Assembly (NCBI GenBank): GCA_964555555.1
Contig: CAZKSQ010000002.1
Location: 1-34,899 of the forward strand
DNA length: 34,899 nt
Direction of reading: 5' to 3'
Source of the DNA: an uncultured Candidatus Saccharibacteria bacterium
GTDB lineage: Bacteria > Patescibacteriota > Minisyncoccia > Phycocordibacterales > PALSA-1337
Part shown: piece after piece, positions 4,144 to 27,639 of the stretch
Layout of the letters: every line of letters begins with the position of its first letter
Position numbering within the stretch: position 1 is the first letter of the stretch
The notes under the pieces: model-generated
Databases searched by the model: none
Seen by the model: only the letters and a program-made list of their open reading frames with translations
What the model was told of the DNA's origin: nothing
Position numbers and translations under genes: made by a program

Positions 4144-4503
4144 ATGAAAAATAAGCTTAAACTGCTTTTCGCGCTCCCCATACTGGCACTGGCTTTCGTA
4201 GCTGTTTTGGCTATGCCTCACACTGCCAGCGCAAACTGGGGCAATGGAGGCTACGGAGGAGGTTATGGCGGCGGCAATCGCGGTGGATACAATGGAGGTT
4301 ATGGTGGCGGATACAACGGAGGCGGCTATAATGGCGGTTATGGAGGAGGATATCACAACCCACCTGTCTATACTCCGACAGTTCTGCAAACCGCTTACTC
4401 TTATTCATATTATCCGACGTACAGTTACACTCCCGTCTATTATCCAGTTTATTATCCTTCATACACTTATTCGTCTTACGGTTACGGATCGTATTACTAC
4501 TAG
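4144..4503 (+). CDS. secreted Gly/Tyr-rich low-complexity protein
   Basis: 119 aa. Signal peptide MKNKLKLLFALPILALAFVAVLAMPHTASA with an AxA cleavage site. Then (GGYGG/GGYNG)n repeats, then a Tyr/Pro/Ser/Thr-rich tail ending GSYYY. Confidence 0.7.
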   Translation: MKNKLKLLFALPILALAFVAVLAMPHTASANWGNGGYGGGYGGGNRGGYNGGYGGGYNGGGYNGGYGGGYHNPPVYTPTVLQTAYSYSYYPTYSYTPVYYPVYYPSYTYSSYGYGSYYY

Positions 4504-13494: not shown

Positions 13495-14727
13495 ATGGAT
13501 TCAAAAATCTCATCTTTTGTTTTGCCTAACGGCCTAACCGTGGTAAGCATTTATAAGCCATATAGCCCAAATGTCTCTTTTAGCCTTAGATTGATGGCTG
13601 GCAGCATATACGAAAAAAAAGATGAGATCGGTGTGGCGCATTTTTTGGAACATATCGTATTCGATGGCACAGAGAAGTATCCAGATGAAAAAAAGTTAGC
13701 CGAGCTTATCGATGAGCGCGGGGGATATCGGAATGGCATAACAAGCAGGGAAACTGTTGAATATGTCGTCAAGGTACTCAGAGAAGACGCGGATGTCGGA
13801 TTTGAGTATCTTTCCCAGATCGCCTCTTCGCCTTTGATGCGCGAAAATGACATAGAAAAACAGAAGAAGATTATTGAGCAGGAAATTTATCGATTCAAAT
13901 CTGATCCTATGACGCTCGCACCTAGATTGATATATTCTGCAATATTTCCCAATACTCGTTTAGAAGCACTTAGTTCTGGAGACGTAGAGGATATAGCAAA
14001 GATTTCAAGAGATTCTATTCACGGATATTTTTCCAAAACTCATGTCGCTAAAAACATGGTTTTGTGCGTAAGCGGAAACATTTCTGAAGAAGTCTTGCGC
14101 GGATCGGCAGAAAAATATTTTGTAAATATTAGCTCCGGGCATGAAATGGGCAAAATAGATATAGACGTGCCTATGAAGGATGGCCAAATTGTGTCGAAAG
14201 TTCCGGGATTAAAGCAGTCAACGTTGGCCATCGGCTACTCGTCTTTCCAGATTAGATCGGCCCATCGGTATGCAGCAGATCTAATATCGGCTATTCTTAC
14301 GAAAGGCAAGTCTTCAAGGTTGGTCTATGAAATAAGAGAAAAAAGGGCGATGGCATATGCAGTTAATAGCAGTAATTATTCCGGAAGAAACTTCGGTGCC
14401 TTTGTGGTGCAGGTTGGCTTGGCACAGGACAAGGTCCCAGAATGTCAAAGCATTATTTTGAATGAAATAAAAAGATTAAGTACAGAGACATTATCTAGCG
14501 CGGAATTAGCGAAGGCAATATCTTTCATCAAAGCAAACATGGCTTTTTCTTTTGAGAATTCTTTAGCAGAAGCCTCATATTATTCTGGATCTTGGTGCGC
14601 TACAGGCAATATCGTGTCTGTTGAAAAAGAAATTTCAAATTATGGAACGGTGAATCCATTGGAAATTCTAGAAACAGCGAAATTGTTGTTTTCCAAGAAA
14701 CCTGCAATATTGACTATTCTTGCCTAG
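13495..14727 (+). CDS. M16 (pitrilysin/insulinase) family zinc peptidase
   Basis: Inverted zinc motif HFLEH near the N-terminus. 410 aa with the two-lobe M16 length. Confidence 0.85.
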   Translation: MDSKISSFVLPNGLTVVSIYKPYSPNVSFSLRLMAGSIYEKKDEIGVAHFLEHIVFDGTEKYPDEKKLAELIDERGGYRNGITSRETVEYVVKVLREDADVGFEYLSQIASSPLMRENDIEKQKKIIEQEIYRFKSDPMTLAPRLIYSAIFPNTRLEALSSGDVEDIAKISRDSIHGYFSKTHVAKNMVLCVSGNISEEVLRGSAEKYFVNISSGHEMGKIDIDVPMKDGQIVSKVPGLKQSTLAIGYSSFQIRSAHRYAADLISAILTKGKSSRLVYEIREKRAMAYAVNSSNYSGRNFGAFVVQVGLAQDKVPECQSIILNEIKRLSTETLSSAELAKAISFIKANMAFSFENSLAEASYYSGSWCATGNIVSVEKEISNYGTVNPLEILETAKLLFSKKPAILTILA

Positions 14728-14743
14728 CTTGACTTTTTTCTAC

Positions 14744-14773
14744 TTGACATACCTAGGATTATGCTAGTAGACT
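14744..14773 (+). promoter_or_regulatory. candidate sigma-70 promoter of a short stand-alone transcription unit
   Basis: TTGACA (14744-14749), 18-nt spacer, TAGACT (14768-14773). Confidence 0.3.
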
Positions 14774-14861
14774 AATAATGCAGGTAACCTCAAATGAGGG
14801 AGAACGGACAGCTGTTTGACTGCTGTAGCTCGTAAAAACAAAAAAATCTAAGACAGATCTT

Positions 14862-14936
14862 ATGATTAAAATTCATCTAAATGGTGACGACGATGGTCCC
14901 GATCACGATGATTACGGTGACGAAAGTTCACCATAG
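14862..14936 (+). CDS. candidate 24-aa acidic micro-ORF (MIKIHLNGDDDGPDHDDYGDESSP)
   Basis: My own translation. ATG to TAG. It lies between the candidate promoter and a strong terminator. There is no SD, but most genes here lack one. It could equally be a non-coding sRNA. Confidence 0.25.
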   Translation: MIKIHLNGDDDGPDHDDYGDESSP

Positions 14937-14958
14937 TCTCGTTGCAATCAATAGTTGG

Positions 14959-14987
14959 GGGTTGGTAGAAATACCAGCCCTTTTTTT
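14959..14987 (+). terminator. strong rho-independent terminator
   Basis: GGGTTGGTA-gaaa-TACCAGCCC (9 bp including one GU, GNRA loop) followed by TTTTTTT. Confidence 0.75.
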
Positions 14988-14988
14988 A

Positions 14989-14997
14989 TGCTAAAAT
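14989..14997 (+). promoter_or_regulatory. extended -10 element, leaderless-type, for the SDR operon
   Basis: TGCTAAAAT ends 6 nt before ATG 15004 and abuts the terminator T-run. Confidence 0.45.
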
Positions 14998-15003
14998 CAT
15001 CCC

Positions 15004-15690
15004 ATGAAAGGCAAGAATATAGTCATTACCGGCGCTAGCCGCGGACTGGGCAAAGCGATGGCAGAAGTTGCTATGAAGCGCGGAGCAAAGGTCATGGCCT
15101 CCGCCAGAAGCGAAAAGGATCTGGAGGCACTGGCAAAAGAGATAGGGGCAGTTCCATTCAAGGCTGATGTGACCAAAGAAAAGGAAATGATCGCTTTGGC
15201 CAAGGCGGCCGTCAAAGAATTTGGTCATATAGACATCTGGATCAACAATGCCGGCGTGTGGTTGCCGCGAGGACCTATAGAAGATGCCGATATGGATAGG
15301 GCACATGAATTAATCGAGGTAAATCTTTTTGGCACTATGTATGGCACGCGTGCGATTTTGCCGTACTTCAAGGAAAAGGGAAGTGGAATTATTGTGAATG
15401 TGGTATCGACCGCGGCATTGGTGGGACGGCCGAATTCCTGCGTCTACTCTGCTAGCAAATGGGCGGCGCGAGGATTCACCGATTCTTTGCGAGAAGAGGT
15501 CAAGGCTATGGGTATCAAAGTAATTGGAATTTATCCTGGAGGAATAAAAACTGACCTTTTCAATGAGCAAAAGCCTTCGGAATATGACGACTTCATGGAT
15601 CCGTATGAGACAGCCGTGAAGATCTTGGATAATTTGGCAAAACAAGATCCCGATGTGGAGATGGTATTGAAGCGACCCGGACAGTCGTAA
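15004..15690 (+). CDS. short-chain dehydrogenase/reductase (SDR)
   Basis: TGASRGLG (TGxxxGxG), NNAG and YSASK (YxxxK). Confidence 0.9.
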   Translation: MKGKNIVITGASRGLGKAMAEVAMKRGAKVMASARSEKDLEALAKEIGAVPFKADVTKEKEMIALAKAAVKEFGHIDIWINNAGVWLPRGPIEDADMDRAHELIEVNLFGTMYGTRAILPYFKEKGSGIIVNVVSTAALVGRPNSCVYSASKWAARGFTDSLREEVKAMGIKVIGIYPGGIKTDLFNEQKPSEYDDFMDPYETAVKILDNLAKQDPDVEMVLKRPGQS

Positions 15691-15694
15691 TGCC

Positions 15695-15967
15695 TTGAAA
15701 AACCTGAATCAAATCAGAAAAAAGATCGACGGCATCGATGGCAATATCGTGAAGCTTATTGCCAAACGCTTTTCATACCTGCCTGCAATAACAAAATACA
15801 AGAAGGAGCTCGGTTTGCCATTGAAATGCGCCAAAAGGGAGCTTGAGATCTTGATTCGCTTGGAAAAGCAGGCAAAAGCTCTCAAAATCGAGCCTGATGC
15901 CATAAAAAGCATATTTATAGCTATTTTCAAGCAATCGCGCGCGATTCAGAAGGAATTGAAACCCTGA
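15695..15967 (+). CDS. chorismate mutase, AroQ class (or an isochorismate-pyruvate-lyase-like relative)
   Basis: 90 aa. LNQIRKKIDGIDGNIVKLIAKRF...KRELEIL pattern of the all-helical CM_2 fold. TTG start, 4 nt after the SDR stop. Confidence 0.7.
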   Translation: MKNLNQIRKKIDGIDGNIVKLIAKRFSYLPAITKYKKELGLPLKCAKRELEILIRLEKQAKALKIEPDAIKSIFIAIFKQSRAIQKELKP

Positions 15968-15975
15968 ATATTATG

Positions 15976-15984
15976 TGCCATAAT
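15976..15984 (+). promoter_or_regulatory. extended -10 element, leaderless-type (internal to the operon)
   Basis: TGCCATAAT ends 7 nt before ATG 15992. Confidence 0.4.
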
Positions 15985-15991
15985 AGAGAAA

Positions 15992-17491
15992 ATGAAACAT
16001 TTATCAGCCTCGGATTTTTTTGGCATCCTGAAAAATAAAAAGAGCGCCTATTGGGAAAAAGAACAGGCGGCTTATATGCTGGAACAGTTTCATGGTTGCG
16101 CAAAGCACATACCAGCGTACAAGGATTTTTTGCGAAAGAATGGGGTCAAGCCGGAAATGGTGAGGAGCTATAGCGAGCTCGATGACCTGCCGCCAGTCGG
16201 CAAGGATTCCTATCTGCGCAAATTCCCATTGGAAAAGCTCTGCTACGACGGAACCTTGAAGGAACAATCCCTGGTCTTTACATCTACGTCGGGCTCCACG
16301 GGAGCGCCTTTTTATTTCCCGCGGAATGGCATCTTGGACGAGCAGTCGTCGATGTGCCACGAAGCCTTTTTGCGCAATTCTAAGCTGGATTCCAAGAAGT
16401 CCACCCTAGTTCTAGTTTGCTTTGGCATGGGCGTCTGGATCGGCGGCGTCATCACCTATCAGGCGTTCAAAAAGATCACGGAGCGCGGCTGGAACCTGTC
16501 TATCCTGACGCCTGGCGTCAATAAAAAAGAGATCTTCGCGGCCATGAAGAATCTGGCGCCGCACTATGACCAAATCATCCTAGCCGGCTATCCGCCATTC
16601 ATGCGCGATGTCATAGAAGAAGGAGAGGCTGAAGGCATACGCTGGAAAAGCTTCGATATGCGGCTCATCTTTGCCGCGGAAGCATTCTCCGAGGATTTTC
16701 GCGAGTATCTGATGAAAAAAACGGGCATCAAAGAGCCTTACCGCCATACTATGAATATCTATGGCAGTGCCGATCTGGGCACGATGGCGACGGAGACTCC
16801 GCTTGCCATCTTGGTCCGCAGGCTGGCGCTCAAGAAACCCAAGCTCTACAGAAAGCTTTTCAAGGAAGCGCACCGCTTGCCGACTTTGGCGCAATTCAAT
16901 CCGCATTTCATAAATTTCGAGGAGATCGACGGGCATATCTATATCACTGGCAACAATATCTTGCCCTTGGTGCGCTATGAGATCGGCGACAATGGCGGCG
17001 TGAGGACTTACGACGGCGTCGCGGAAATATTCAAGTCGGAGGGTTTCAATCTAGAAAAGGAAATAAGAAAAGCTGGCATAAAGGATACGGTCACAGAATT
17101 GCCTTTCGTATATGTCTACGAGCGGAGCGATCTCTCTGTGAAGCTTTATGGCGCCATCATATATCCGGAGCATGTGAAATATGGACTGGAGAGGTCGGCG
17201 CGCCTGCAAAAATATCTTACTGGCAAATTCACGCTCTTTACCAAGTATGACAAGGACCATGGCGAATATCTGGAATTGAACCTGGAATTACGTCCGGATA
17301 CCAAGGAGAACAAAAAATTAGCGAAAGAAGTCATAAAATGTGTTTCTGCCAGTTTGGCGGAAAAGAGCGCCGAGCACAAGAACAACTTCGACCTGCTGGG
17401 CAATAAAGTCCTGCCGCGCGTGGTCTTCTGGCCGCATGGGCACCCGGAGCACTTCCAGACAGGGATCAAGCAGAAGTGGGTGAAGAGATAG
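15992..17491 (+). CDS. adenylate-forming enzyme, phenylacetate-CoA ligase / CapK / F390-synthetase-like family
   Basis: 499 aa. AMP-binding P-loop-like TSTSGSTGAPFYFP. Overall layout resembles PaaK. Substrate unknown. Confidence 0.7.
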   Translation: MKHLSASDFFGILKNKKSAYWEKEQAAYMLEQFHGCAKHIPAYKDFLRKNGVKPEMVRSYSELDDLPPVGKDSYLRKFPLEKLCYDGTLKEQSLVFTSTSGSTGAPFYFPRNGILDEQSSMCHEAFLRNSKLDSKKSTLVLVCFGMGVWIGGVITYQAFKKITERGWNLSILTPGVNKKEIFAAMKNLAPHYDQIILAGYPPFMRDVIEEGEAEGIRWKSFDMRLIFAAEAFSEDFREYLMKKTGIKEPYRHTMNIYGSADLGTMATETPLAILVRRLALKKPKLYRKLFKEAHRLPTLAQFNPHFINFEEIDGHIYITGNNILPLVRYEIGDNGGVRTYDGVAEIFKSEGFNLEKEIRKAGIKDTVTELPFVYVYERSDLSVKLYGAIIYPEHVKYGLERSARLQKYLTGKFTLFTKYDKDHGEYLELNLELRPDTKENKKLAKEVIKCVSASLAEKSAEHKNNFDLLGNKVLPRVVFWPHGHPEHFQTGIKQKWVKR

Positions 17492-17531
17492 GAAAGTTGT
17501 ATAATACCGGCATACAAATTAACTGCCAAAT

Positions 17532-18716
17532 ATGGAAAAGAACAAGCGAAATATAAAGAAAATCGGCGCTGTGAAGGTGGGACATAAGCCCATTTTATTG
17601 GATTTGGGCAAAAAAGCGGATCAAAAAAAGCTCGATAAATTATTCTCTGACAAAAAGATCCAGCGCGTCTCTGACGATTATCGCGAGCAACTCTTGGAAC
17701 TATTCGGCGTGAAGAATCCGAGTCAGGTATACGCTCCAGAATTCAAGGCCAAGTTCGAGAAACACTACAAAGAGCTGGAAAAGAAAACGCCTTTTATCGA
17801 GCAGGGCAACTGGGTTTACTTCCCTTGGAGTTCGACGCTAGTCCACATCTTGCCTGAAGAAGACTTTTGGCTGGTAAGGACCGCGAGGAATAAGAATCTG
17901 ATCAACAATGAGGAGCAGGAGAAGTTTTATAATTCAACCATTGGGATTGGCGGACTTTCTGTCGGCTCGAGTGTCGCTTTTGCTATCGTTCTCCAAGGCG
18001 GCGCAAAACATTTGAAACTGGCAGACATGGACCGCTTGGCGCTTTCCAATACCAACAGGATATTGATGGGAGTAGACAATCTGGGCGCACTGAAAGTGGA
18101 AATGGCGGCCAGGCGCATTTATGAGATCAACCCATACGCCGAGATTGAAATATTCCCTGAAGGCTTGAACAAAGGGAATATGGACAAATTCTTCAAAGGC
18201 CTTGATGTCGTAGTCGATGAGCTCGATAATCTTGCGGTCAAATACCTGATCCGCGAACATGCTAAAAAGAATAAGTTGCCAGTCGTCATGGCTGCAGATA
18301 ACGGTGACAATGCCGTAGTAGATGTCGAGCGGTATGATCTCGAACCTAATACGCCTTTCTTTCACGGACGCATGGGCGAAGTTTCATTCGAAATGCTCTC
18401 CAAGCTCGACAAGTTCGGCATAGGCAAGATGATAACCAAGCACGTAGGGACGGAGAATGTTACAGAAAAGATGCAGCAGTCGCTTCTTGAAATGGGCAAG
18501 ACCATCGTCTCCTGGCCGCAACTCGGCGGCGCGGCTCTCATAAACGGCGCGGCGGTGGCTTATTGCATCAGAAAGATCTTGAACGGCCAAGAATTGGAAA
18601 AGAACCGGTCGCTCATCTCGTTGGATGAGAAGCTCATACCGAGCTATAACAGCAAAGAGGAAGTAGAGAAGCGCCAGAAGATCGCGGACTCATTCAAGAA
18701 GATTTTTGGCCTATAA
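17532..18716 (+). CDS. ThiF/MoeB/E1-like adenylyltransferase (Rv1355c-family N-terminal module)
   Basis: Rossmann GIGGLSVGSSVA followed by LADMDRLALSNTNR. The N-terminal WVYFPWSSTLVHILPEEDFWLVRTARNKNLI segment matches, from memory, the Rv1355c/MoeY family. Confidence 0.75.
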   Translation: MEKNKRNIKKIGAVKVGHKPILLDLGKKADQKKLDKLFSDKKIQRVSDDYREQLLELFGVKNPSQVYAPEFKAKFEKHYKELEKKTPFIEQGNWVYFPWSSTLVHILPEEDFWLVRTARNKNLINNEEQEKFYNSTIGIGGLSVGSSVAFAIVLQGGAKHLKLADMDRLALSNTNRILMGVDNLGALKVEMAARRIYEINPYAEIEIFPEGLNKGNMDKFFKGLDVVVDELDNLAVKYLIREHAKKNKLPVVMAADNGDNAVVDVERYDLEPNTPFFHGRMGEVSFEMLSKLDKFGIGKMITKHVGTENVTEKMQQSLLEMGKTIVSWPQLGGAALINGAAVAYCIRKILNGQELEKNRSLISLDEKLIPSYNSKEEVEKRQKIADSFKKIFGL

Positions 18717-18740
18717 TATTTATACACCTTTATCAATCTC

Positions 18741-19796
18741 GTGAAAGACGACATAGAAAAAATAATAACCGATGGCATATATGCTCCTTCCGGCGAGAAT
18801 TGCCAGCCGTGGCGATTCGTCGTGAAGGGCAATGTTATTGAAGTTTTTAATCTTCCCGAGCTTGATAAATCTTTATACAACTACAAGCAAAAAGGTTCAT
18901 ACGTCGCTCACGGCGCGCTCATCGAGAACATAGTCATAAGCGCATCTCGGAGGGGCTATTCATCATCCGTGCAAATATTCCCTAGAGCTGAAGAGAATCT
19001 CATCTCGGCGATTACGCTTACGAAAGCAGAAGCCAAGAATGAGCCGCTTTTTCCATTCGTAGTAAAAAGGCATACCAATCGCAAAGATCACAAGCAGAAG
19101 AAGCTCAACACCGAACAAAAGAATGCACTGACTAGCGCCGCCAAGGAAGGGAAGCTGGGAGAGCTGACTATTATCGACGACAAAGTTTCCATGGATAAGC
19201 TCGGCAAAGCATTGGCGGTGAACGAGCAGGTGATATTCGAGAATAAAAAGCTGCATGACTTCTTTTACGAGCACATTCTTTGGAAGGAGGATGACCAATA
19301 TAAGGCTGGAGGTTTTTACATCAAGACTCTGGAATTCCTGCCGCACCAGCTGAAAGGCGTCAAGCTATTCAAGGCTTGGCCTATTCTTAAATTGCTGAAT
19401 AAGATCGGAAAAGTCTCTCGCGTCATCGCCAAGGAAAATAGCGAGAAATATGCCAAGTCCGGCGCGTTGGGAATCATTACCGTGAATGGAAACGCGAACA
19501 AAGATTACGTTAATGCAGGCAGGGTCGCCGAACGAGTCTGGCTCACAGCGACCAAGCTTGGAATAAGTGTGCACCCTTGCACCGGCGTGCTCTACTTCAT
19601 GGAAAATATAAGAGACCACAATGAAAAGGAGTTTTCGCTAGAGCACCAAGATGCCATCAGACGTGCATATGCGGACATAATAAAGACTTTTAAGGTATCC
19701 GGAAAAACAACACCCATGCTTTTCCGCCTAGGCTTCGCCGAAGAGGCGAGCGCCAAGGCGATGAGGATGAATCCCGAAATTAAATATTTGACGTAA
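18741..19796 (+). CDS. double-domain nitroreductase-fold (FMN) protein
   Basis: 351 aa. N-terminal YAPSGENCQPWRF nitroreductase signature. The length fits two fused nitroreductase halves (Acg-like). GTG start. Confidence 0.75.
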   Translation: MKDDIEKIITDGIYAPSGENCQPWRFVVKGNVIEVFNLPELDKSLYNYKQKGSYVAHGALIENIVISASRRGYSSSVQIFPRAEENLISAITLTKAEAKNEPLFPFVVKRHTNRKDHKQKKLNTEQKNALTSAAKEGKLGELTIIDDKVSMDKLGKALAVNEQVIFENKKLHDFFYEHILWKEDDQYKAGGFYIKTLEFLPHQLKGVKLFKAWPILKLLNKIGKVSRVIAKENSEKYAKSGALGIITVNGNANKDYVNAGRVAERVWLTATKLGISVHPCTGVLYFMENIRDHNEKEFSLEHQDAIRRAYADIIKTFKVSGKTTPMLFRLGFAEEASAKAMRMNPEIKYLT

Positions 19797-19832
19797 GTAT
19801 ATATTTACTGTATAAAGTAATAAACTTAGCGC

Positions 19833-19860
19833 GACAGCCTGCATAAAGTAGGCTGTCTTT
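19833..19860 (+). terminator. putative terminator ending the operon
   Basis: GACAGCCT-gcataaagt-AGGCTGTC followed by TTT. The T-run is short. Confidence 0.45.
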
Positions 19861-19891: not shown

Positions 19892-22462
19892 ATGAAGATG
19901 AATGTAACCTTAAGCATGGCGGTAACGAGCGTTTTCGCGCTCTTGGTATCAGTTACGCGGTTAGTCAGCCAAACACAAATGTATACTCTGGTTGATATCG
20001 ATCCAACATCCGCTTACTCGTTGGTTGAGGCAAATGCCATCAATGCCAACGGTGAAGTCGCGGGTGATTTCTTGCTCGCTGGTAGCCCGATCAGGCATGC
20101 ATTCCTGTATAAAAATGGAACAATGAGTGATATCGGCACATTTCAGGGCTATCAAAGCATGGCTAATGGAATCAACGATGTTGGCCAAGTCGTCGGCAAT
20201 CTAAAGGTTGAAGGCGGCATCGGCAGGGCATTTCTGTATTCGAATGGTTCGATGGTCATGCTCGATACTCTGGGGGGTTCCGGAAATAGTGCGATGGCGA
20301 TCAATAACTATGGTCAAATTGCCGGATCTTCCCAGCTCGCTGGCAACAATAGTTCGCATGCCTGCATATATGAGAATGGTTCGATTCTTGACTTGGGCAC
20401 TTTGGGGGGAACTAATAGTACCGCCTTTGCTATCAATGACCACGGAGAAGTTGTTGGCTACTCGGATCTATCGAATGGTTCTAGCAAAGCTTTTTTGTAC
20501 TCGAATGGCTCTATCAAAAAGCTGGATGGTCTTGAAAATCCCTCAGGAATCAATAACCTTGGCCAAGTGCTAGGTTACAGTTATATATCCGATCCTGTAT
20601 TAACAATATTTCATTCTTTCTTATATGAGAATGGAACTGTGCGGGATCTGGATAATGCTGGTACTCAAGGCTTTGCGAACGGAATCAATGACTCTGACCA
20701 AATTGTCGGAGTATCGTTTGTCGGACAAACTTCAGAGGCTCGACTATACTCGAATGGTTCGTGGAAATATCTGAAGGATCTATCCATCGTCAACGGAACA
20801 GGTTGGACGTTCTACTCTGCCAATGCCATAAACAATCGCGGACAAATAGTTGGCAATGGAAAGAATCCATCTGGACAAGGACACGCGTTCTTGCTCAACC
20901 CGATTCCTATAGGCGCAGTCGAAACGGTCAGCAACGCCAAGCCGGCACAGCCGACTTACGGCAATCTGCCGGTAAAGGATCCGACGAAGGACAGTTTGGT
21001 GGTGGTGACGCATGGGTGGCAACCATTTCCATTTCCACCAGACATCGGATGGGTAGATAAGATGTCGAGCAACATTGATACATATTTATCCAATCATATG
21101 ATAAACAACTGGCAAGTCTATGGCCACAAATGGGTTGACGGTGCGTGGAAGCTAGATCCATCAGATGCGCTTGTCAACGCGATAAAGGAAGGAAAAACTC
21201 TAGGCGAAAGTATTGTAGCTCAAGGGTGGACACACGTTCACTTCATCGCTCACAGCGCTGGAGCTGCATTGATTCAAACAGCCACTGACGTGATAAAGAA
21301 GCCGGGGTCGGCTTCGTTTTCTACGGTAGTTCACGAAACATTCTTGGATGCCTTTGTCGGCTCCAATTTTGCAGGTATAACTACTTACGGTAGAGGTGCG
21401 GATTGGGCAGACAGTTACTTCACTCGCGATGGGCAGACTGAAATTGATCCGTTCGTAAGCCTCTTCGTCATAGCCCCTTACACAGAATCGCCTGTGTTCC
21501 ATTCATACAACGTGGACGTCACGTTTCTCGATCCTCATAAGTCGAGCTATGCAAAGTTCGTCTCGCTGGCGAGTGGGGATCAAATCATTGAAACGTGCCA
21601 CGACACCGAAACTACACACGGATGGCCGATAGACTTTTACACGAATACAATAGTGGGAAATGTTACATCGAACTATGCCGGTTTCGGTTTTCCTCTAAGC
21701 GAGGAAGGTGGCAAGTGGGATTCGAGATCAGAATACGTAACGGGAAACGGCACGGACATTCATCGGGATATACCAACACAAATACTCGGCATTCCCGACT
21801 CTGTTTGTGGTGCTATTGCACAGCTAAATCCTCAAGCGTATCCAGATACTCCTATTGATATTGCTCAAGCATCATCCGCAGACAGTCAAACCGGCTCTCT
21901 GCAGAAGCGGTCCGGTTCAGTCGCTCTATATTCCGGTTCGCCGGTTTGGACAGCAATGTTCGTATCGAGTACAAACCCCGTTAATTTTGTTTCATTCGAC
22001 GCAGAATTCACGGATACCAATTCAGCCCAGGGGCTGCTATCTGTTTACTGGGACACAAATACTATAGGGACTCTGGATGAAAGAGTTGTCTTATCAGAAT
22101 TCCAGCATTATTTGTTTAAGTTTCCGAACGCAGCTCCCAATAGTTTGCACATGCTAGGTTTCCGTCTCGATCCATTCACAGTTGCGCATTCGAGCATATT
22201 GCTTACAAACATCGTGCTCAATCAAGTCGGCGTCAGTCGACCGTTCTCGCTGTCCGTAACTACTAACATGGTTAATGGACTGCGGTTGCTACGGTTAGAT
22301 GGAGAAGCTGGATTCAACTACAATGTCCAGGCATCGTCTAACCTCGCCAGCACCAACTGGACTCAAATCGCTATCCTGGCGAATACCAACGGCACGGTGT
22401 TTTTCTACGACCGTGACTCAACAAATTACCTTCAACGGTTCTACCGAGCGGTAGTCCCGTAG
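19892..22462 (+). CDS. secreted HAF-repeat protein with central alpha/beta-hydrolase (lipase/esterase-like) domain and two C-terminal beta-rich modules
   Basis: Signal peptide. About 8 repeats of the HAFLY.NG.M.D(L/I)GT(L/F).G..S.A..IN..GQ(V/I)VG type (HAF extracellular repeat). VVVTHGW...HFIAHSAGAAL gives a nucleophile elbow AHSAG. C-terminus ...QRFYRAVVP. Confidence 0.85.
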   Translation: MKMNVTLSMAVTSVFALLVSVTRLVSQTQMYTLVDIDPTSAYSLVEANAINANGEVAGDFLLAGSPIRHAFLYKNGTMSDIGTFQGYQSMANGINDVGQVVGNLKVEGGIGRAFLYSNGSMVMLDTLGGSGNSAMAINNYGQIAGSSQLAGNNSSHACIYENGSILDLGTLGGTNSTAFAINDHGEVVGYSDLSNGSSKAFLYSNGSIKKLDGLENPSGINNLGQVLGYSYISDPVLTIFHSFLYENGTVRDLDNAGTQGFANGINDSDQIVGVSFVGQTSEARLYSNGSWKYLKDLSIVNGTGWTFYSANAINNRGQIVGNGKNPSGQGHAFLLNPIPIGAVETVSNAKPAQPTYGNLPVKDPTKDSLVVVTHGWQPFPFPPDIGWVDKMSSNIDTYLSNHMINNWQVYGHKWVDGAWKLDPSDALVNAIKEGKTLGESIVAQGWTHVHFIAHSAGAALIQTATDVIKKPGSASFSTVVHETFLDAFVGSNFAGITTYGRGADWADSYFTRDGQTEIDPFVSLFVIAPYTESPVFHSYNVDVTFLDPHKSSYAKFVSLASGDQIIETCHDTETTHGWPIDFYTNTIVGNVTSNYAGFGFPLSEEGGKWDSRSEYVTGNGTDIHRDIPTQILGIPDSVCGAIAQLNPQAYPDTPIDIAQASSADSQTGSLQKRSGSVALYSGSPVWTAMFVSSTNPVNFVSFDAEFTDTNSAQGLLSVYWDTNTIGTLDERVVLSEFQHYLFKFPNAAPNSLHMLGFRLDPFTVAHSSILLTNIVLNQVGVSRPFSLSVTTNMVNGLRLLRLDGEAGFNYNVQASSNLASTNWTQIAILANTNGTVFFYDRDSTNYLQRFYRAVVP

Positions 22463-22482
22463 TTCTATATAGTTCTTTCACA

Positions 22483-22508
22483 GAGCTCGCTTCGGCGGGC
22501 TCTTTTTT
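22483..22508 (+). terminator. rho-independent terminator with UUCG tetraloop
   Basis: GAGCTCGC-ttcg-GCGGGCTC followed by TTTTTT. Confidence 0.75.
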
Positions 22509-22529
22509 ATTGACAATTACACCGTGTTC

Positions 22530-22841
22530 CTAGACCATCCAAGCTGTTGCCCAAAAATAATATGCAACAGAAAGAAGTAGCGCTATTATTTCAAGGAGTG
22601 TAATAATATTACCAACCAGAATGGATTTATCAGCTTTAAGATTTTTATAACCAAAAAATATTGCTATTACAAAGAATATAAAATATGGCCATATATATAA
22701 GTCATACAAAATAGTCGAAACAACGTGCGATTGGGGTGGGTTCATGATTAACTCCCTTCCTAAAGATAACCACAAAAATATCCATAGAGGAGCTACCACA
22801 AAAAAACCAAGAGATAGGAACACGTTTTTATATTTATCCAT
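22530..22841 (-). CDS. small polytopic membrane protein, unknown function
   Basis: 103 aa with 3-4 hydrophobic helices. N-terminus MDKYKNVFLSL resembles that of its neighbour. Confidence 0.6.
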   Translation of the reverse strand: MDKYKNVFLSLGFFVVAPLWIFLWLSLGRELIMNPPQSHVVSTILYDLYIWPYFIFFVIAIFFGYKNLKADKSILVGNIITLLEIIALLLSVAYYFWATAWMV

Positions 22842-22850
22842 GATATTGAT

Positions 22851-22859
22851 ATTTTAACA
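22851..22859 (-). promoter_or_regulatory. extended -10 element (minus strand)
   Basis: The minus strand reads TGTTAAAAT, 9 nt before ATG at 22841. Confidence 0.4.
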
Positions 22860-22885
22860 TATAAAACTATATTTTGATATTCACA

Positions 22886-22913
22886 GAGTCCATCTTCGGG
22901 TGGACTCTTTTTT
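22886..22913 (+). repeat. second copy of the UUCG-tetraloop terminator-like hairpin
   Basis: GAGTCCATC-ttcg-GGTGGACTC followed by TTTTTT. The flanks TTCACAGAG...CTCTTTTTTATT match the hairpin at 22483. No plus-strand gene lies upstream of it. Confidence 0.6.
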
Positions 22914-22915
22914 AT

Positions 22916-23254
22916 TTAGCTAGTTACAGTACTCCATTTAAAAGCAAAAGCATAAAAAAACAAAAAAAACAATAAAGCTAATATTCCGATAATTCCCAAG
23001 GCAGTACCTATCCAAGTTGACTCTTTTGAATCAACACTCTTGGAAGCGAAAAATACTCCGAGTGCGAGCAACAACAGGCATGGGACAAAAAGGATACCAA
23101 TCGATATTTGTACGATCAAAAAAGATTCAGGCGCGGGAAAAAATACTAACCAATATGGACCAACGACAGATGAATATAGCAAATACCATATAAAAACAAA
23201 AAAATAAGAACTTAATGACAGTAGAGTATTTTTATATTTTTGTGTAGATATCAT
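22916..23254 (-). CDS. small polytopic membrane protein, paralog of 22530-22841
   Basis: Start taken at MISTQKYKNTLLSL. The shared KYKN.LLSL N-terminus and helix layout match the neighbour. A TATAAT lies 7 nt upstream. Confidence 0.6.
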   Translation of the reverse strand: MISTQKYKNTLLSLSSYFFVFIWYLLYSSVVGPYWLVFFPAPESFLIVQISIGILFVPCLLLLALGVFFASKSVDSKESTWIGTALGIIGILALLFFLFFYAFAFKWSTVTS

Positions 23255-23261
23255 ATGTCGA

Positions 23262-23267
23262 ATTATA
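23262..23267 (-). promoter_or_regulatory. -10 hexamer, leaderless-type (minus strand)
   Basis: The minus strand reads TATAAT, ending 7 nt before ATG at 23254. Confidence 0.4.
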
Positions 23268-23373
23268 ACTACCCATCCTACAAATGACAAACACGTTGGT
23301 GGATAACAATATGACTATTTATAAGCATCTCAGTAACTGTTGATATCCTTTGCAGACTTTGGGATGAGAACTA

Positions 23374-23382
23374 TGTCATAAT
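23374..23382 (+). promoter_or_regulatory. extended -10 element, leaderless-type
   Basis: TGTCATAAT ends 6 nt before ATG 23389. Confidence 0.45.
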
Positions 23383-23388
23383 AAACGT

Positions 23389-25038
23389 ATGGAAAACACT
23401 TCACCTGAGACGCAAGCACTCTTATCAAAAGAGCCTGATAATCTGTTGCAAAAGGGTATTTCTACGTGGAAATTCAAAATAATAAAGTGTACAGGATGGA
23501 TGGCAATAGCTATTGCATGTTTTAAAATAGCATATGATTCATATTGGGTCGCGGTTGGAATCGATTATCTATATAAAGGAATATTGGACGCATATCAACC
23601 GGGGTTTGCGATAACCATTGTGGTATATGCAATATCTTTCGTGTACATTGTCCTTGGCAAGAGAGTGACCCATCCAAGAGACATAAATTTGCGGATACAT
23701 ATTCGCATACTTCTGATTCTGTCACTTGTTATAGGTATATACGAAGTTATACGGCCAAACTCTTTTGGTTACCTCCTGTTGTTCTTGGCTATATCTCTTA
23801 TGATTTCAGATTATATCGTAGGTTCCCTTAGAAAATCAGAAGAATATAACGGTCATTTAACGACTTCTGCATATAGGATTAACAAAAAAGGATGGGTAAT
23901 TATATTTGTCTTTACAGCGATTTTAGTTGCTATTATGCCTGCATTAGAAAAGAAAGTTTCTCCAGTCATCGTCTGGAAGAGCTATCAGGATACCGGTTGG
24001 GGCTTTCAATTGTCATATCCGTCGCAATTTCGTCTAGTGAGCCAAGATGACAATCAAAACGGTCCGTTGCATTATTTTATTCCACAGAAGACATATGCAG
24101 AATCTGGTTACGTTGGCAAATTACTTGAAATCGCAGATGTTGATGGCACTTCAACATTACGGGGTTACATGGAGGTAACGATTCTGCCGATTCAGCCAAA
24201 AAGTCTTGAAGTATTAGATGGAGAATTGCGTGCAGATGTTGCTTCAAGCTCCGTATCATATCAATTGAAGGGAATATCGACCGCACTAAATTATGTCACT
24301 ATCGAAGATAGAAATCTTCCAGCTATCACATACACAATGACAAAAGATGGAACAAATAAACAGCTTACTTATATTTACTATTTTATTCCACCGTACACGA
24401 TTTTTGGAAAGCCGCAGCCGTCAAAGCTGTTAAGGATTGATTATACCCCGAGCGATAGCGATATACTTAAACAGATAGTTTCAACGATGAAATTAATTCC
24501 AATCATACCAACCGATGACTCTTTATATTATAGTGTTAAAGATAACAAGGATAGTTTCTGGTGTGACCGGATAAAGGATGGAGACCTCAAAAGAAACTGT
24601 TACATTGCAGTTCGCGGTCATCCAATTATCGATTATTATCCGGTTGATTTTTCAGCTACCGTAGGAAAAGGCGGAAAAGTTCATGTGAGTAGTTCTGATA
24701 TAACTCTGTCAGCATCTAAACCGGACAATGCTACAACAGGCGTGGCGTGGATAGCGATTCCGGTGACAGAAAATCAGACACCTTGGGAGTTGATAAATTT
24801 TGATGCAGCGTTTACCAATGGAGTAAAAGCACAGGGACTGCTTACGGTTTTTTGGGATACTCATTCTATAGGTACGGAAGATGGGCGTCTCGACATGTCT
24901 TATGTTGGATTTGGTCCTTTTGATGTTGGCAGTAGCACTCCAGGAAGCGTCCATGTATTAGGCTTTAGGCTTGATACATTCGCTCCAGGAAACGCCTCTG
25001 TAACTATATCTAAGATATCGGGTGAATTAGTCCATTAA
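23389..25038 (+). CDS. membrane-anchored protein with extracytoplasmic region and a C-terminal module shared with the HAF-lipase protein
   Basis: About 5 N-terminal TM helices. The C-terminal INFDAAFTNGVKAQGLLTVFWDTHSIGTEDGR...VHVLGFRLDTF aligns to VSFDAEFTDTNSAQGLLSVYWDTNTIGTLDER...LHMLGFRLDPF. Confidence 0.8.
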   Translation: MENTSPETQALLSKEPDNLLQKGISTWKFKIIKCTGWMAIAIACFKIAYDSYWVAVGIDYLYKGILDAYQPGFAITIVVYAISFVYIVLGKRVTHPRDINLRIHIRILLILSLVIGIYEVIRPNSFGYLLLFLAISLMISDYIVGSLRKSEEYNGHLTTSAYRINKKGWVIIFVFTAILVAIMPALEKKVSPVIVWKSYQDTGWGFQLSYPSQFRLVSQDDNQNGPLHYFIPQKTYAESGYVGKLLEIADVDGTSTLRGYMEVTILPIQPKSLEVLDGELRADVASSSVSYQLKGISTALNYVTIEDRNLPAITYTMTKDGTNKQLTYIYYFIPPYTIFGKPQPSKLLRIDYTPSDSDILKQIVSTMKLIPIIPTDDSLYYSVKDNKDSFWCDRIKDGDLKRNCYIAVRGHPIIDYYPVDFSATVGKGGKVHVSSSDITLSASKPDNATTGVAWIAIPVTENQTPWELINFDAAFTNGVKAQGLLTVFWDTHSIGTEDGRLDMSYVGFGPFDVGSSTPGSVHVLGFRLDTFAPGNASVTISKISGELVH

Positions 25039-25048
25039 TACTTTTTTC

Positions 25049-25960
25049 ATGTCCCGCATCCAAGAAATCAACTCTGCCATAGAAAAACTCAAGGCATTTC
25101 GCGCGGACCCGGATTATGGCGACCGCCAATATGCCATAGACGAGAACATCATCTTCCTGGAAGCTATAAAGTCGTTGCCGCGATATGCGAAATGGCTCAT
25201 AACCAGGGCTAAAAAGATAGATGGCAAAAGGCTTTTGGAGCTGACGGATTTTCCGGTGGAGGAGTGGGATGTAAGCATGCACAAAAGACTTATTCAGATC
25301 GAAAGAAACAAGCACATCGGACTCGGCAAACCATTAGTTGATGGCATATTCAACCACATCAAACAGCAAAAAGGTCCATTGAAATTGGTTAATCTGGGTG
25401 CTGGCGGGATGGAAGTCGATAGGCAAGTCATAGAGAAACTTATCGGCGACAGATACAATGTTCCGATTATATTCATTGGCGTAGATAAGTCTCCGATAAC
25501 CAATAAGATTGCTTATGAAAACCTCAAGACACTCGGCGCTTTGGTTAAGATTGTTCAAATGGAGCAGCTGACCAAAGAAAGGCTCGATGAAATAGCAAAG
25601 AACAATCTTGGCATAACGGTAATTCTCTGCAAAAACGACATATTCAAGCTGGATAAAGAATTTCCGGCGCAGACATTCGATGTGATATATCATTCGCTTT
25701 TCAAGCACCACATCAAAATGGAAATGCAGAAAAACCTGGATGCTATAATGGAGAAGATCGCGAAGAAGCGGCTGGAGTACGATGGCTTCAGAACCTGGCC
25801 AGTCGTGATCCCGCAAAGCATAGCTGCTTGGAAATACCCGATCTTCTTGGGCGGCACGATATTTTCGGTTTTGAGGTACGAGACGGTCGATGAAATAAGC
25901 AGATTGCCTGGCAAAAAGACTTTCTATAAGAAGACCGGGCATTGCTTGCGCGAGTTCTGA
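25049..25960 (+). CDS. putative SAM-dependent methyltransferase-fold protein
   Basis: 303 aa. LVNLGAGGMEVD (motif-I-like), then IGVDKS. The assignment is weak. Confidence 0.5.
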   Translation: MSRIQEINSAIEKLKAFRADPDYGDRQYAIDENIIFLEAIKSLPRYAKWLITRAKKIDGKRLLELTDFPVEEWDVSMHKRLIQIERNKHIGLGKPLVDGIFNHIKQQKGPLKLVNLGAGGMEVDRQVIEKLIGDRYNVPIIFIGVDKSPITNKIAYENLKTLGALVKIVQMEQLTKERLDEIAKNNLGITVILCKNDIFKLDKEFPAQTFDVIYHSLFKHHIKMEMQKNLDAIMEKIAKKRLEYDGFRTWPVVIPQSIAAWKYPIFLGGTIFSVLRYETVDEISRLPGKKTFYKKTGHCLREF

Positions 25961-25968
25961 CAAAAAAC

Positions 25969-27639
25969 ATGATCCAAGATTCAATAGCACTTTTCACCAG
26001 CCTGCAATTCAAAAATCTGGACCTATTGACGGTAGGTATTACCGTTGCGGCAATTGTCATACTCGGCTTTGTGGTGTATCTCAATAATACCAAGAGCATC
26101 ACGAATCAATCCTTTGCTATTTTTTGTACAGTGACGGTACTGTGGAGCTTCTTCAATTATATAAATTACCAGACATCCGCACCGGAACTCGTGCTCTGGC
26201 TTTTGAGAGTCGTTATATTTTTGGGAGTTTGGCATTCGTTCAGTTTTTTCCAATTTTGCTATGTATTTCCGGATGAACATAAGAAATTCCCTAAGTGGTA
26301 TAAGTTTGTGCTATATCCGTGGACTTTGCTGGTTTCTATACTGACACTTTCGCCGCTGGTCTTCTCGAGCATCGCGCAGATATCTTCTAGCGGATCCGTA
26401 TCGAAAACGGTCGTTCAAAACGGCATAGTGCTGTTCGTCCTGACTGTCATAGGCTTGCTCATTGCTGGAGTCACGATACTGATCCGAAAGATCCGCAATG
26501 TTAGCAAAAAAGAAAAGGGGCAATACTATTCCATCTTGACTGGAGCGGTGATCACCTTCGGCTTGCTCTTCACATTCAATCTCATTCTGCCGGGTTTGTT
26601 CTTGAATGTCCGATTTATTCCGCTCGGTGCCATATTCATCTTCCCATTCATTGCCTTTACTTCTTATGCAATATATAGACACAACCTCTTTAATGTCAAA
26701 GTCGCGGCTGTTTCCATGACTGCTTTTATCCTGACGATATTCAGCTCGATAAATATCATTTATGCTAGCCAGTTCAGCCAAGTCATCATCAATGTATCGA
26801 TGTTCGCGGCGGTGCTATTGGGCAGTACGGTCTTGATCCGCAGCATCCTCCGCGAGATCGAGCAGCGCGAAAAGATCGAAAAGCTGGCGGCGCAATTGCA
26901 GACGGCGAATGATAGGCTGACGGATCTCAACCGGCAGAAGTCGGAATTCGTATCGTTCGCCAGCCATCAGCTCCGAGCGCCTTTGACAGCGATGAAAGGA
27001 TATTCGTCGCTCTTGCTCGAAGGCGACATGGGCGAGCTTTCCAAAGAGGCGCGTGATGGCGTGAGCAGGATATATGACTCGACCAAGACGCTGGTGAACA
27101 TCGTCGACGACTATCTGAATATCAGCCGCATCGAGCTGGGCACCATGAAGTATATGTTCGAAACCATCGACCTGAAGCAGATGATCGAGGATGTCATCGC
27201 CGAGCTTCGGCCGAATATCGAAAAAACCAAGATCGGCTTCTCATTCAAGGCGGAAAATACCGATGGCGACTACCGCATCAATGCCGACAAGGACAAGCTG
27301 AAGCAGGTCATAGCGAACCTGGTAGACAATTCGCTCAAGTATACGCCTAGCGGAAAAGTGGACGTGTCGCTCGCTTATGACAAAGTGAAGTGCAAGTTCG
27401 TATTCAAGATCCAAGATACCGGCATCGGCATTGCGCCGGAAATATTGCCGCAGCTTTTCAAGAAATTCAATCGTTCTGACAGCGCCTATAAGATCAATAT
27501 CAAGGGCACGGGCCTGGGATTGTACGTGGCCAAAGAGATGGTGGAAGCGCACCACGGAACTATCCGAGCGGAGTCGGAAGGCGAAGGCAAAGGATCGACA
27601 TTCATCGTGGAATTGGAGCCGAGTGAGAAGAAGTGCTAA
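25969..27639 (+). CDS. sensor histidine kinase with polytopic N-terminal membrane domain
   Basis: About 8 TM helices and a coiled coil. H-box FASHQLRAPL, N-box DNSLKYTP, G1 DTGIGI, G2 GTGLGL. ATG 25969 preferred to TTG 25942. Confidence 0.85.
   Translation: MIQDSIALFTSLQFKNLDLLTVGITVAAIVILGFVVYLNNTKSITNQSFAIFCTVTVLWSFFNYINYQTSAPELVLWLLRVVIFLGVWHSFSFFQFCYVFPDEHKKFPKWYKFVLYPWTLLVSILTLSPLVFSSIAQISSSGSVSKTVVQNGIVLFVLTVIGLLIAGVTILIRKIRNVSKKEKGQYYSILTGAVITFGLLFTFNLILPGLFLNVRFIPLGAIFIFPFIAFTSYAIYRHNLFNVKVAAVSMTAFILTIFSSINIIYASQFSQVIINVSMFAAVLLGSTVLIRSILREIEQREKIEKLAAQLQTANDRLTDLNRQKSEFVSFASHQLRAPLTAMKGYSSLLLEGDMGELSKEARDGVSRIYDSTKTLVNIVDDYLNISRIELGTMKYMFETIDLKQMIEDVIAELRPNIEKTKIGFSFKAENTDGDYRINADKDKLKQVIANLVDNSLKYTPSGKVDVSLAYDKVKCKFVFKIQDTGIGIAPEILPQLFKKFNRSDSAYKINIKGTGLGLYVAKEMVEAHHGTIRAESEGEGKGSTFIVELEPSEKKC

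Follow-up and report, generated by a model that had tools for sequence, protein, structure and literature searches.

Locus and gene content

We analysed a 34,899-nt stretch of contig CAZKSQ010000002.1 (assembly GCA_964555555.1) from an uncultured Candidatus Saccharibacteria bacterium, which is referred to as the window. The genes of interest encode a PaaK-fold ligase, a ThiF/E1-like protein and a tandem nitroreductase-fold (NTR) flavoenzyme. They are preceded by genes for a short-chain dehydrogenase/reductase (SDR) and an AroQ-type chorismate mutase (CM) and followed, after an insertion, by genes for a 303-aa protein and a sensor histidine kinase with a HisKA_7TM domain (7TM, seven-transmembrane). 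Positions 15992–19796 together with 25049–27639 form the core of this finding, and we consider it probable that they are the form which the oxazolone (azlactone) pathway of the OxzAB, TyzACB and TrzAS systems takes in Patescibacteria.

Domains were called on the open reading frames (ORFs) of the window with Pfam and NCBIfam profile searches (Table 1). An earlier note on this DNA had described a five-gene operon, SDR to NTR, bounded by two hairpins and accompanied by an M16 peptidase and a micro-ORF. It had compared this cluster with pathways for ribosomally synthesised and post-translationally modified peptides (RiPPs), called it unclassified, and mentioned the activation of a chorismate- or prephenate-derived aromatic acid as an alternative. 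Our ORF list and domain searches reproduced its gene calls, its coordinates, the HxxEH motif of the peptidase and the gaps from SDR through CM, ligase and ThiF to NTR (4, 24, 40 and 24 nt, from the coordinates).

Table 1. Features of the window discussed in the text
Feature	Position	Strand	Evidence and remarks
M16 metallopeptidase	13495..14727	+	HFLEH in translation; Peptidase_M16 1.5e-30, M16_C 2.4e-28 (Pfam)
Sigma-70-like promoter match TTGACA-18-TAGACT, 5' of micro-ORF	14744..14773	+	consensus scan, 10/12 positions; consensus match only
Micro-ORF, 24 codons, acidic peptide MIKIHLNGDDDGPDHDDYGDESSP	14862..14936	+	
Intrinsic-terminator-like hairpin with T7 run, ending micro-ORF transcript	14957..14989	+	terminator scan
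SDR, first gene of operon	15004..15690	+	adh_short 1.6e-57
AroQ-type CM	15695..15967	+	CM_2 6.7e-20
PaaK-fold ligase, 499 aa	15992..17491	+	no Pfam match; NCBIfam PaaK 1.8e-8
ThiF/E1-like protein	17532..18716	+	ThiF 5.6e-25; NF005901 4e-102
NTR flavoenzyme, 351 aa	18741..19796	+	Nitroreductase 2.7e-10; Acg-family FMN oxidoreductase 1e-35
10-bp hairpin 3' of NTR gene	19833..19857	+	fold z = -3.15; weak U tract
Lineage-specific insertion	19892..25038		HAF-repeat surface protein, two small minus-strand ORFs, four-transmembrane (4-TM) 549-aa protein
303-aa protein, GxGGxG Rossmann-like motif	25049..25960	+	no Pfam match
Sensor histidine kinase	25942..27639	+	HisKA_7TM 6.5e-13, HisKA, HATPase_c

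A conserved module across Patescibacteria

We gathered 80 non-redundant genome loci around ThiF orthologs, called their genes crudely and queried them with every window protein; the 70 loci counted below for the ligase are those with enough flank. The ThiF orthologs are 60–81% identical across Patescibacteria. They come from Parcubacteria/Patescibacteria/Paceibacterota genomes (e.g., Taylor-, Nomura-, Adler-, Kaiser-, Lipton-, Uhr- and Doudnabacteria), which fits the earlier note's guess of a biosynthetically poor genome.

The genes around these orthologs form a conserved block in a conserved order: PaaK-fold ligase, ThiF, tandem NTR, sometimes the 303-aa protein, and the 7TM histidine kinase. 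The ligase gene lies 5' of ThiF in 68 of 70 loci (immediately adjacent in 63), NTR is present in 62/71 (adjacent in 44) and the kinase in 54/63, with median gaps of 13 nt (ligase–ThiF), 5 nt (ThiF–NTR) and 2.5 nt (NTR–kinase). The 303-aa protein is an optional member of the module between NTR and kinase, occurring in 12 of 63 loci and every time just before the kinase. The HisKA_7TM kinase is the normal last gene of the conserved operon: it follows NTR directly in 40 other loci, with a gap of 30 nt or less in 39 of these adjacent cases, and in the window the pair is split by the insertion of about 5 kb. A strict pattern scan found the operon in at least 130 species-level genomes, and clustering at 90% identity gives more than 2,000 groups of proteins.

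The remaining genes of the proposed cluster are not part of this block. M16 homologs, CM and the micro-ORF were each found at 0 of the 80 ThiF loci (one locus, L012, has a divergent acidic peptide, described below), and SDR lies within the module only in the window and at L014 (1/80). The conserved set thus leaves out M16, micro-ORF and CM but adds 25049–27639, so the real unit is both smaller and larger than that of the earlier note. Of the genes which that note had joined into one system, ligase, ThiF and NTR do co-occur strongly, whereas M16, micro-ORF, CM and SDR do not, and the bounds it had drawn stop short of the 303-aa protein and the 7TM kinase.

What stands beside the ligase varies from locus to locus. 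In 20 loci it is a ScyB-like ELFV dehydrogenase (its closest relative is ScyB, a tryptophan dehydrogenase), in 12 a FlxA-like tyrosine ammonia-lyase (581–620 bits) of the type with a 4-methylideneimidazole-5-one (MIO) group, and in 8 a HisC-like aminotransferase. The lyase-linked ligases (12/12) form their own subfamily, 29–36% identical to the window ligase compared with 41–65% for the other orthologs, as would be expected if the substrate of the ligase tracks the upstream enzyme. These variable aromatic enzymes support an aromatic-acid pathway and not a RiPP, and the alternative named in the earlier note is therefore the one we favour.

In the window, this variable aromatic-acid/amino-acid enzyme slot 5' of the ligase is filled by CM, an accessory gene. 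SDR is likewise an accessory, lineage-specific gene. The adjacent SDR–CM pair recurs in metagenome contigs L085, L086, L104, L109 and L111 with no ligase, ThiF or NTR nearby, and other SDR orthologs sit directly downstream of genes for class II tRNA synthetases, which is what an apparent M16-like family 5' of SDR in other contigs turned out to be.

Among the neighbours of the module in the 80 loci, there is no recurrent GNAT/acyltransferase family, small-ORF family or YcaO, no recurrent sulfur-carrier, small ubiquitin-like or RNA-binding partner, and no recurrent paa or ring-cleavage genes. The window ORFs that we scanned carry no acyltransferase Pfam domain and, as the earlier note had stated, neither YcaO nor radical SAM enzymes.

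ThiF and NTR resemble a split TrzS

ThiF and NTR match the two halves of a single family model, NF005901 (the Rv1355c family). Residues 15–377 of ThiF align with model positions 8–348, including the N-terminal extension (E = 4e-102, 343 bits), and NTR matches the C-terminal half (5e-58, 197 bits; PRK14851 at 1.6e-61). The summed halves reach 540 bits, which is above the cut-off of 476; neither half alone passes. Here the two are separate genes, not one polypeptide as in TrzS and OxzB. Searched exhaustively, a set of 1.8 billion representatives yielded 973 relatives below 1e-30; ThiF–NTR fusions of 720–790 aa are numerous among them. The closest fusion, P0245, is 51% identical to the window ThiF and passes the NF005901 cut-off with 485 bits, as do the fused proteins P0300 (791 bits) and P0278.

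The concatenated window proteins align collinearly with fused family members of 720–770 aa, and every nucleotide-binding and FMN-site motif is kept. In ThiF these are GxGxxG (GIGGLSVGS), DxD (KLADMD), SNxNR (SNTNR) and DELD (229–232), all aligned with the fused members. In NTR they are APSGENCQPW and RHTNR, the latter (residues 110–114) aligning with the RVTNR of family members (position 517 in P0300). The closest solved structure to NTR is Acg (2YMV), as reported for TrzS.

Rv1355c is TrzS: in vitro, its ThiF domain cyclises N-acyl-Trp using ATP and its flavin-dependent oxidase (FDO) domain desaturates it using O2, giving an N-acyl tryptazolone (PMC12856293). The residues reported for TrzS are D217, which is needed for cyclase activity, the FDO active-site arginine R540, and Gln651 (PMC12856293). 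A characterised split version, TyzB/TyzC, makes tyrazolones (PMC10404671), and OxzB is the founding example of an oxazolone synthetase (bioRxiv 10.1101/2020.06.11.147165). According to a 2025 review, no ThiF-like enzyme apart from this type is known to have a small-molecule substrate (PMC12596934).

By this homology, ThiF would be an E1-like ATP-dependent cyclase that corresponds to the N-terminal half of Rv1355c/TrzS, and NTR an Acg-like FDO that corresponds to its C-terminal half, for which we propose a role as C-alpha/C-beta desaturase. D229/D232 of ThiF are the presumed counterpart of TrzS D217, as judged from the motif and not from the M. smegmatis sequence. The earlier note was right to see the pairing of an E1-like protein with a nitroreductase as the key to this cluster. 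Its label “unclassified” no longer applies, as the pair matches a model whose family is characterised as the TrzS oxazolone synthase (PMC12856293).

Fusions extend this picture. P0285 (924 aa) joins ThiF to a MIO aromatic lyase/aminomutase, which scores best as tyrosine 2,3-aminomutase (547 bits vs a cut-off of 501), and P0278 (1061 aa) is a ThiF–FDO with a C-terminal GNAT domain; a tblastn search with this GNAT extension found nothing.

Two other assignments were rejected. ThiF is not an ordinary ThiF or MoeB: the models for these give 57–74 bits against cut-offs of 152–449, and no ThiS/MoaD-type partner recurs. Nor does it belong to a known anti-phage E1/E2 system (CBASS Cap2, Bil), because the PADLOC matches (only 17–33 bits, ThiF residues ~125–275) are to the generic E1 Rossmann region; the other proteins gave no relevant match.

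It could also be that ligase, ThiF and NTR modify a tRNA, a ribosomal component or some other conserved target, with TcdA, which forms an oxazolone ring on t6A, as the precedent. The high identity of ThiF across many Patescibacteria lineages would suit such a housekeeping role, and the module is often found beside grpE-dnaK-dnaJ, tRNA synthetase and ribosomal protein genes. Some orthologs are named tRNA threonylcarbamoyladenosine dehydratase by JGI, and the formation of an oxazolone on tRNA by a ThiF-like enzyme is documented (PMC12596934). However, the TcdA model matches ThiF at only 9.5e-14, compared with 4e-102 for Rv1355c, and the lack of a recurrent sulfur-carrier or RNA-binding partner speaks against a macromolecular target, as do fusions and neighbours that point to free aromatic amino acids and acids. 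Ligase and NTR also diverge far more than ThiF (down to 29% and 23% identity), and ligase subfamilies that track the upstream enzyme are typical of changing small-molecule substrates. We therefore regard a housekeeping modification as unlikely.

A PaaK-fold ligase family without a curated model

The ligase is related to phenylacetate-CoA ligase, PaaK, at a distance. A family profile built from 37 orthologs matches PaaK in the PDB at 8e-9, and the P-loop TSGSTGAP aligns with SSGTTGKP of PaaK. The AlphaFold model of the ligase (pLDDT 88) matches PaaK1 (2y27) in Foldseek at 1.4e-20; its neighbours include PaaK1, BT_0428, HCL and ClxA (1e-20 to 1e-14), and also the GH3 enzyme JAR1. The matches to 2y27 and 4r1l (E = 1e-20, TM 0.54–0.58) indicate a PaaK-type two-domain ANL fold. 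The scores are nevertheless below the PaaK equivalog cut-offs (33 vs 646 bits for TIGR02155 and 28 vs 700 for paak_haloarch), orthologs reach 40–57 bits, and the family, which is longer by about 70 residues, lacks a curated model. Taken together, sequence and predicted structure indicate that the ligase is a new PaaK-fold, putatively adenylate-forming family for which Pfam has no model.

The public gene call for the window ligase (P0122, 471 aa) begins 28 codons later than ours. The longer form is supported by residues that are conserved in orthologs (W21 in at least 90%).

We propose that the ligase activates an aromatic acid and forms an N-acyl amino acid; both its substrates and the amide formation are inferred. 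There is a precedent for this step in the ClxA/NatL2-type amide/ester ligases of benzoxazole pathways (PDB 9s3l/9s45; PMC12519233, PMC9400959) and in GH3 JAR1 (4epl). These share the PaaK/ANL fold and couple an adenylated aromatic or acyl acid straight to an amine or phenol without CoA, though their likeness to the window ligase is at fold level only (12–14% identity). ClxA is reported to be an amide ligase (PMC12519233). The pairing of a tyrosine ammonia-lyase with a PaaK-like ligase at 12 module loci also recalls FlxA/FlxY of flexirubin biosynthesis (NF053541, NF053551). Here too there are differences: the similarity to FlxY is weak (22–40 bits vs a cut-off of 520), and flexirubin is made through a polyketide pathway with no ThiF or FDO.

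The PaaK fold, the JGI annotation of the ligase as phenylacetate-CoA ligase and the presence of upstream enzymes that deaminate aromatic amino acids could also suggest salvage or catabolism, in which an aryl-CoA ligase feeds central metabolism, ThiF and NTR are unrelated redox or activation helpers and the kinase senses the substrate. This explanation is very unlikely in our judgement. The PaaK, F390 and FlxY models give 33–57 bits against cut-offs of 458–700, and paa or ring-cleavage genes do not recur near the module. There is also a ligase–ThiF fusion, P0344 (863 aa), which is 38% identical to the window ligase over 488 aa (1e-133), and this fusion and the tight coupling of ThiF and NTR imply that the ligase works in a single pathway with the oxazolone-synthase pair.

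Proposed pathway

The reading we prefer, an oxazolone pathway, takes the chemistry of ThiF and FDO from the literature and would proceed as follows. First, the variable upstream enzyme would supply or interconvert an aromatic amino acid and its deaminated acid. In the window this would fall to CM and SDR, giving a prephenate- or arylpyruvate-derived acid, and at the lyase loci the acid would be coumarate-like. Second, the ligase would adenylate the acid and use it to acylate the amino group of an amino acid, yielding an N-acyl amino acid; it would replace the acyl-CoA-dependent GNAT N-acyltransferase of the known systems. An ATP-driven ligase that works on acids derived from amino acids would be a sensible choice for organisms without fatty-acid synthesis. 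Third, ThiF would adenylate the carboxylate of the N-acyl amino acid, and the amide oxygen would close the oxazolone ring. Fourth, NTR would desaturate the C-alpha/C-beta bond to leave an exocyclic double bond. The predicted product is an aryl-substituted oxazolone or the hydrolysed N-acyl dehydroamino acid.

Each of the three characterised systems shares part of this layout. TrzAS (Rv1356c-Rv1355c of M. tuberculosis and M. smegmatis), which makes N-acyl tryptazolone, is alike in its NF005901 family membership, N-terminal extension, motifs and domain order and, if our proposal for the window pair holds, in acting on aromatic amino acid derivatives. It differs in that the window domains are in separate genes, there is no TrzA-type GNAT but a PaaK-fold ATP-dependent ligase, the acyl donor is probably an aromatic acid and not a short fatty acyl-CoA, the operon is co-transcribed with a 7TM histidine kinase, and the host belongs to the Patescibacteria. 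TyzACB (Rv2336-Rv2338c; PMC10404671), which makes N-acyl tyrazolone, also has a split ThiF (TyzB) and FDO (TyzC) in one operon. TyzB, however, is a shorter ThiF (318 aa) from another subcluster, while the window proteins score as Rv1355c-type, and TyzA is an acyl-CoA-dependent acyltransferase. OxzAB of Pseudoalteromonas rubra (de Rond et al., bioRxiv 10.1101/2020.06.11.147165) is likewise a ThiF–nitroreductase system and makes a 4-arylidene oxazolone from an N-acyl aromatic amino acid. Its OxzB is fused, its OxzA is an N-acyltransferase, and it has been reported only from Proteobacteria.

Several points weigh against an oxazolone pathway. The known systems have as a defining partner the OxzA/TyzA/TrzA acyltransferase, which is missing here. 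In its place we invoke a ligase whose amide formation is a guess, because PaaK-family enzymes usually yield CoA thioesters. The functions given here for proteins from the Candidate Phyla Radiation (CPR, i.e., Patescibacteria) are all predictions. Nine of 71 loci have no NTR within the flank, and in 33 of 73 the ligase has beside it no enzyme of the three aromatic-acid types that we recognised (a count that includes the window, with SDR and CM instead). The kinase of the window lies at a distance of 6 kb, and a search of the window gave no response regulator. An identity of 60–81% for ThiF across order- to class-level lineages is unusually high for a secondary-metabolite enzyme and would fit a housekeeping function too. 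Finally, characterised FDOs use O2, and many Patescibacteria are anaerobes.

A related possibility is that ThiF activates an N-acyl, dipeptidyl or beta-amino-acid intermediate that does not close to a 5(4H)-oxazolone, with NTR desaturating the product in the manner of cyclic-dipeptide oxidases. Albonoursin biosynthesis offers an example of NTR-fold enzymes that desaturate diketopiperazines (cited in bioRxiv 10.1101/2020.06.11.147165), the acylating enzyme and acyl donors are unlike those of all characterised systems, and the aminomutase-like partner in P0285 makes beta-amino acids possible in some relatives. Against this, the closest characterised full-length homologs of both proteins all make oxazolones, and the sequence data hold nothing that favours a different ring. 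We think another ring improbable.

Patescibacteria have tiny genomes and are thought to be almost without biosynthetic capacity. The operon is retained despite this, with a ThiF as conserved as core genes. If the oxazolone assignment is correct, a recently discovered pathway reaches a new phylum, and it does so by an ATP-dependent, CoA-independent route to its N-acyl amino acid precursor that relies on a ligase family lacking a model. The analysis also gives names to thousands of proteins now annotated as hypothetical, ThiF family or phenylacetate-CoA ligase. What is new here is a split TrzS-type pair combined with a new ligase family, aromatic-acid accessory genes and a co-transcribed 7TM kinase, in a new phylum. 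Literature searches gave no paper that ties oxazolones or ThiF–nitroreductase enzymes to CPR, and the TrzS paper mentions neither Patescibacteria nor a ligase or histidine kinase (PMC12856293).

The histidine kinase and the 303-aa protein

A 7TM histidine kinase gene closes the operon in most genomes, which suggests that production is coupled to signal transduction. The kinase may be a regulator of the pathway, or it may be a receptor for the product. Receiver-only response regulators recur near the module (21 places). The authors of the TrzS study suspect a signalling role for oxazolones, and the TrzS locus adjoins cyclic-di-GMP genes (PMC12856293).

By analogy with agr and lux, the operon could encode a signal synthase together with its receptor, with an oxazolone or N-acyl dehydroamino acid as a diffusible signal that the kinase senses. 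We put this forward tentatively, as an idea that is possible and well short of probable. If true, it would be the first chemical communication system of host-dependent ultrasmall bacteria, and each lineage would have its own dialect of the signal, determined by the variable upstream enzyme and the ligase subfamily that changes with it. If the proposed pathway is right, its tight link to a sensor kinase offers a testable hypothesis for what bacterial oxazolones do physiologically, and for the way in which these episymbionts sense or signal.

In four loci, a conserved protein of 66–68 aa, which by eye resembles an XRE-type helix-turn-helix protein, is encoded directly 3' of the kinase (L026 13968–14174, L048 13941–14147, L080 13956–14156 and L082 13871–14074). 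In those lineages, the system may have this protein as its transcriptional output.

Neither Pfam nor NCBIfam assigns the 303-aa protein to a family, its matches to methyltransferases in the PDB are non-significant (E = 0.1–0.4), and a single-sequence AlphaFold model is unusable (pLDDT 36). It is possibly a methyltransferase, going by its GxGGxG motif only. Short ORFs at L012 (2999–3151) and L031 (19868–20002) match just its N-terminus; they look like remnants of a 303-aa gene lost from the module.

The micro-ORF and the M16 peptidase

An acidic peptide core, DD(D)GPDHDDYGxxSSP-stop, is common to the window micro-ORF, metagenome locus L084 and protein P0121. Positions 4322–4398 of L084 encode MQKHILFQADDDGPDHDDYGHDSSP. 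P0121, which reads MKHLTIVECGGGDGDDGPDHDDYGEESSP and has the C-terminal stretch DDGPDHDDYGEESSP, was the single match when the 40-aa L084 form was searched against a set of 5.8 billion proteins. Acidic-peptide ORFs of this kind are too short for most gene finders. Between the window and L084, the core differs by eight synonymous codon changes (including TCA to AGT, both serine) and two conservative replacements, and the two ORFs stop at the same position. Judging from this pattern of substitution, the micro-ORF, a small stand-alone gene, encodes a genuine conserved acidic peptide under selection. The earlier note's micro-ORF is thus conserved, though its probable link is to M16 and not to ThiF.

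In both genomes with readable context, the window and L084, the micro-ORF adjoins an M16 gene. The order is M16–peptide–terminator–SDR in the window and peptide–M16–SDR at L084, where M16 and SDR are 25% and 65% identical to their window counterparts and no ligase, ThiF or NTR lies within 6 kb. The peptide may be related to M16, or it may merely be syntenic with M16 in related genomes. We place M16 and the acidic micro-ORF in a neighbouring unit of their own, outside the ThiF module.

The RiPP reading of the earlier note would make the micro-ORF a precursor that M16 trims, the E1-like protein the enzyme that adenylates its carboxylate (as in MccB/PaaA), and NTR the oxidase. A peptide under selection with an invariant C-terminus (xxSSP), encoded next to M16 in two genomes, is what such a pathway would need, and E1-like enzymes normally act on the C-termini of peptides or proteins (PMC12596934). 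In addition, L012 encodes a divergent acidic peptide (9245–9382, ending in DSDKYDEESYP) 6 kb from its ThiF module and beside an HExxH protein. Co-occurrence, however, fails: neither the micro-ORF nor M16 accompanies other ThiF loci, no small-ORF family recurs by the module, and L084 has peptide, M16 and SDR with none of the three core enzymes close by. A terminator separates micro-ORF and operon in the window, a C-terminal proline would be poorly suited to oxazolone closure, and the variable and fusion partners of the module are amino-acid-metabolising enzymes, not peptide-recognition or export proteins. Compared with MccB/PaaA and the C-protein/SagB pairs of thiazole/oxazole-modified microcins (TOMMs), the window shares the E1-like adenylating fold and, with TOMMs, an FMN nitroreductase-fold dehydrogenase. 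Unlike them, it has no conserved precursor peptide, YcaO or exporter, and ThiF–NTR is collinear with TrzS and has its affinity to the small-molecule Rv1355c clade. A RiPP is in our view the least probable of the explanations considered, and the oxazolone pathway remains our preferred one.

Two more specific roles were rejected. The micro-ORF was considered as an attenuation leader peptide, a reading that we dropped because the peptide sequence is under selection and the L084 copy lies 277 nt upstream of a different gene. M16 is not PqqF, the model for which gives 89 bits against a cut-off of 320, and the window ORFs scanned contain no domain of the radical SAM enzyme PqqE or of PqqB/C/D.

A hairpin with a T run lies directly 3' of the peptide genes of the window and L012; at L084 a hairpin like these is found some 200 nt downstream. 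The HExxH proteins at L011 (11188–11844) and L012 (8224–8910) form a family of 218–228 aa without a Pfam model and are 75% identical to each other. At L011 the gene is between ThiF and NTR; at L012 it is just upstream of the acidic peptide.

Transcription signals and insertions

Both of the hairpins that the earlier note had placed at the ends of the operon are present, and they differ in quality. The upstream one has an 11-bp stem (14957–14982), a minimum free energy of -17.3 kcal/mol for the 67-nt segment 14937–15003 and a T7 run, and it ends 14 nt 5' of the SDR start codon; it is a good intrinsic-terminator candidate. For the downstream one (19833–19857), the role as a terminator is uncertain because its U tract is weak. 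An extended -10-like element, TGcTAAAAT (window 14989–15006), abuts the T run of the upstream terminator and ends 6 nt before the SDR start, and transcription of the SDR-led operon may give a leaderless mRNA or result from read-through. Rfam gave no family above its gathering score in the window; the best match in 14700–15030, sroB at 27 bits vs 44, is at chance level, so a riboswitch or known small RNA 5' of the operon is unsupported. A tRNA scan of the window found none.

The insertion between NTR and the 303-aa gene holds a HAF-repeat protein (856 aa, HAF_rpt 2.4e-56) and the 4-TM protein, which have a C-terminal domain of about 130 aa in common (34% identity, 4e-17).

Radical SAM/SPASM genes occur in or beside the module at L027 (11922–13442), L012 (3558–4922), L031 (16755–17921) and L038 (9416–10360). 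At L027, the gene is followed by one for a SCIFF/ranthipeptide-like 43-aa peptide with six cysteines, MQQEDGFVSLVETEVRTGTQSLSCDNGACYDCVSCDCASDCDK. We rejected these genes as members of the module, as they look like inserted SCIFF-type cassettes. The ThiF–NTR junction seems to be a hot spot for insertion.

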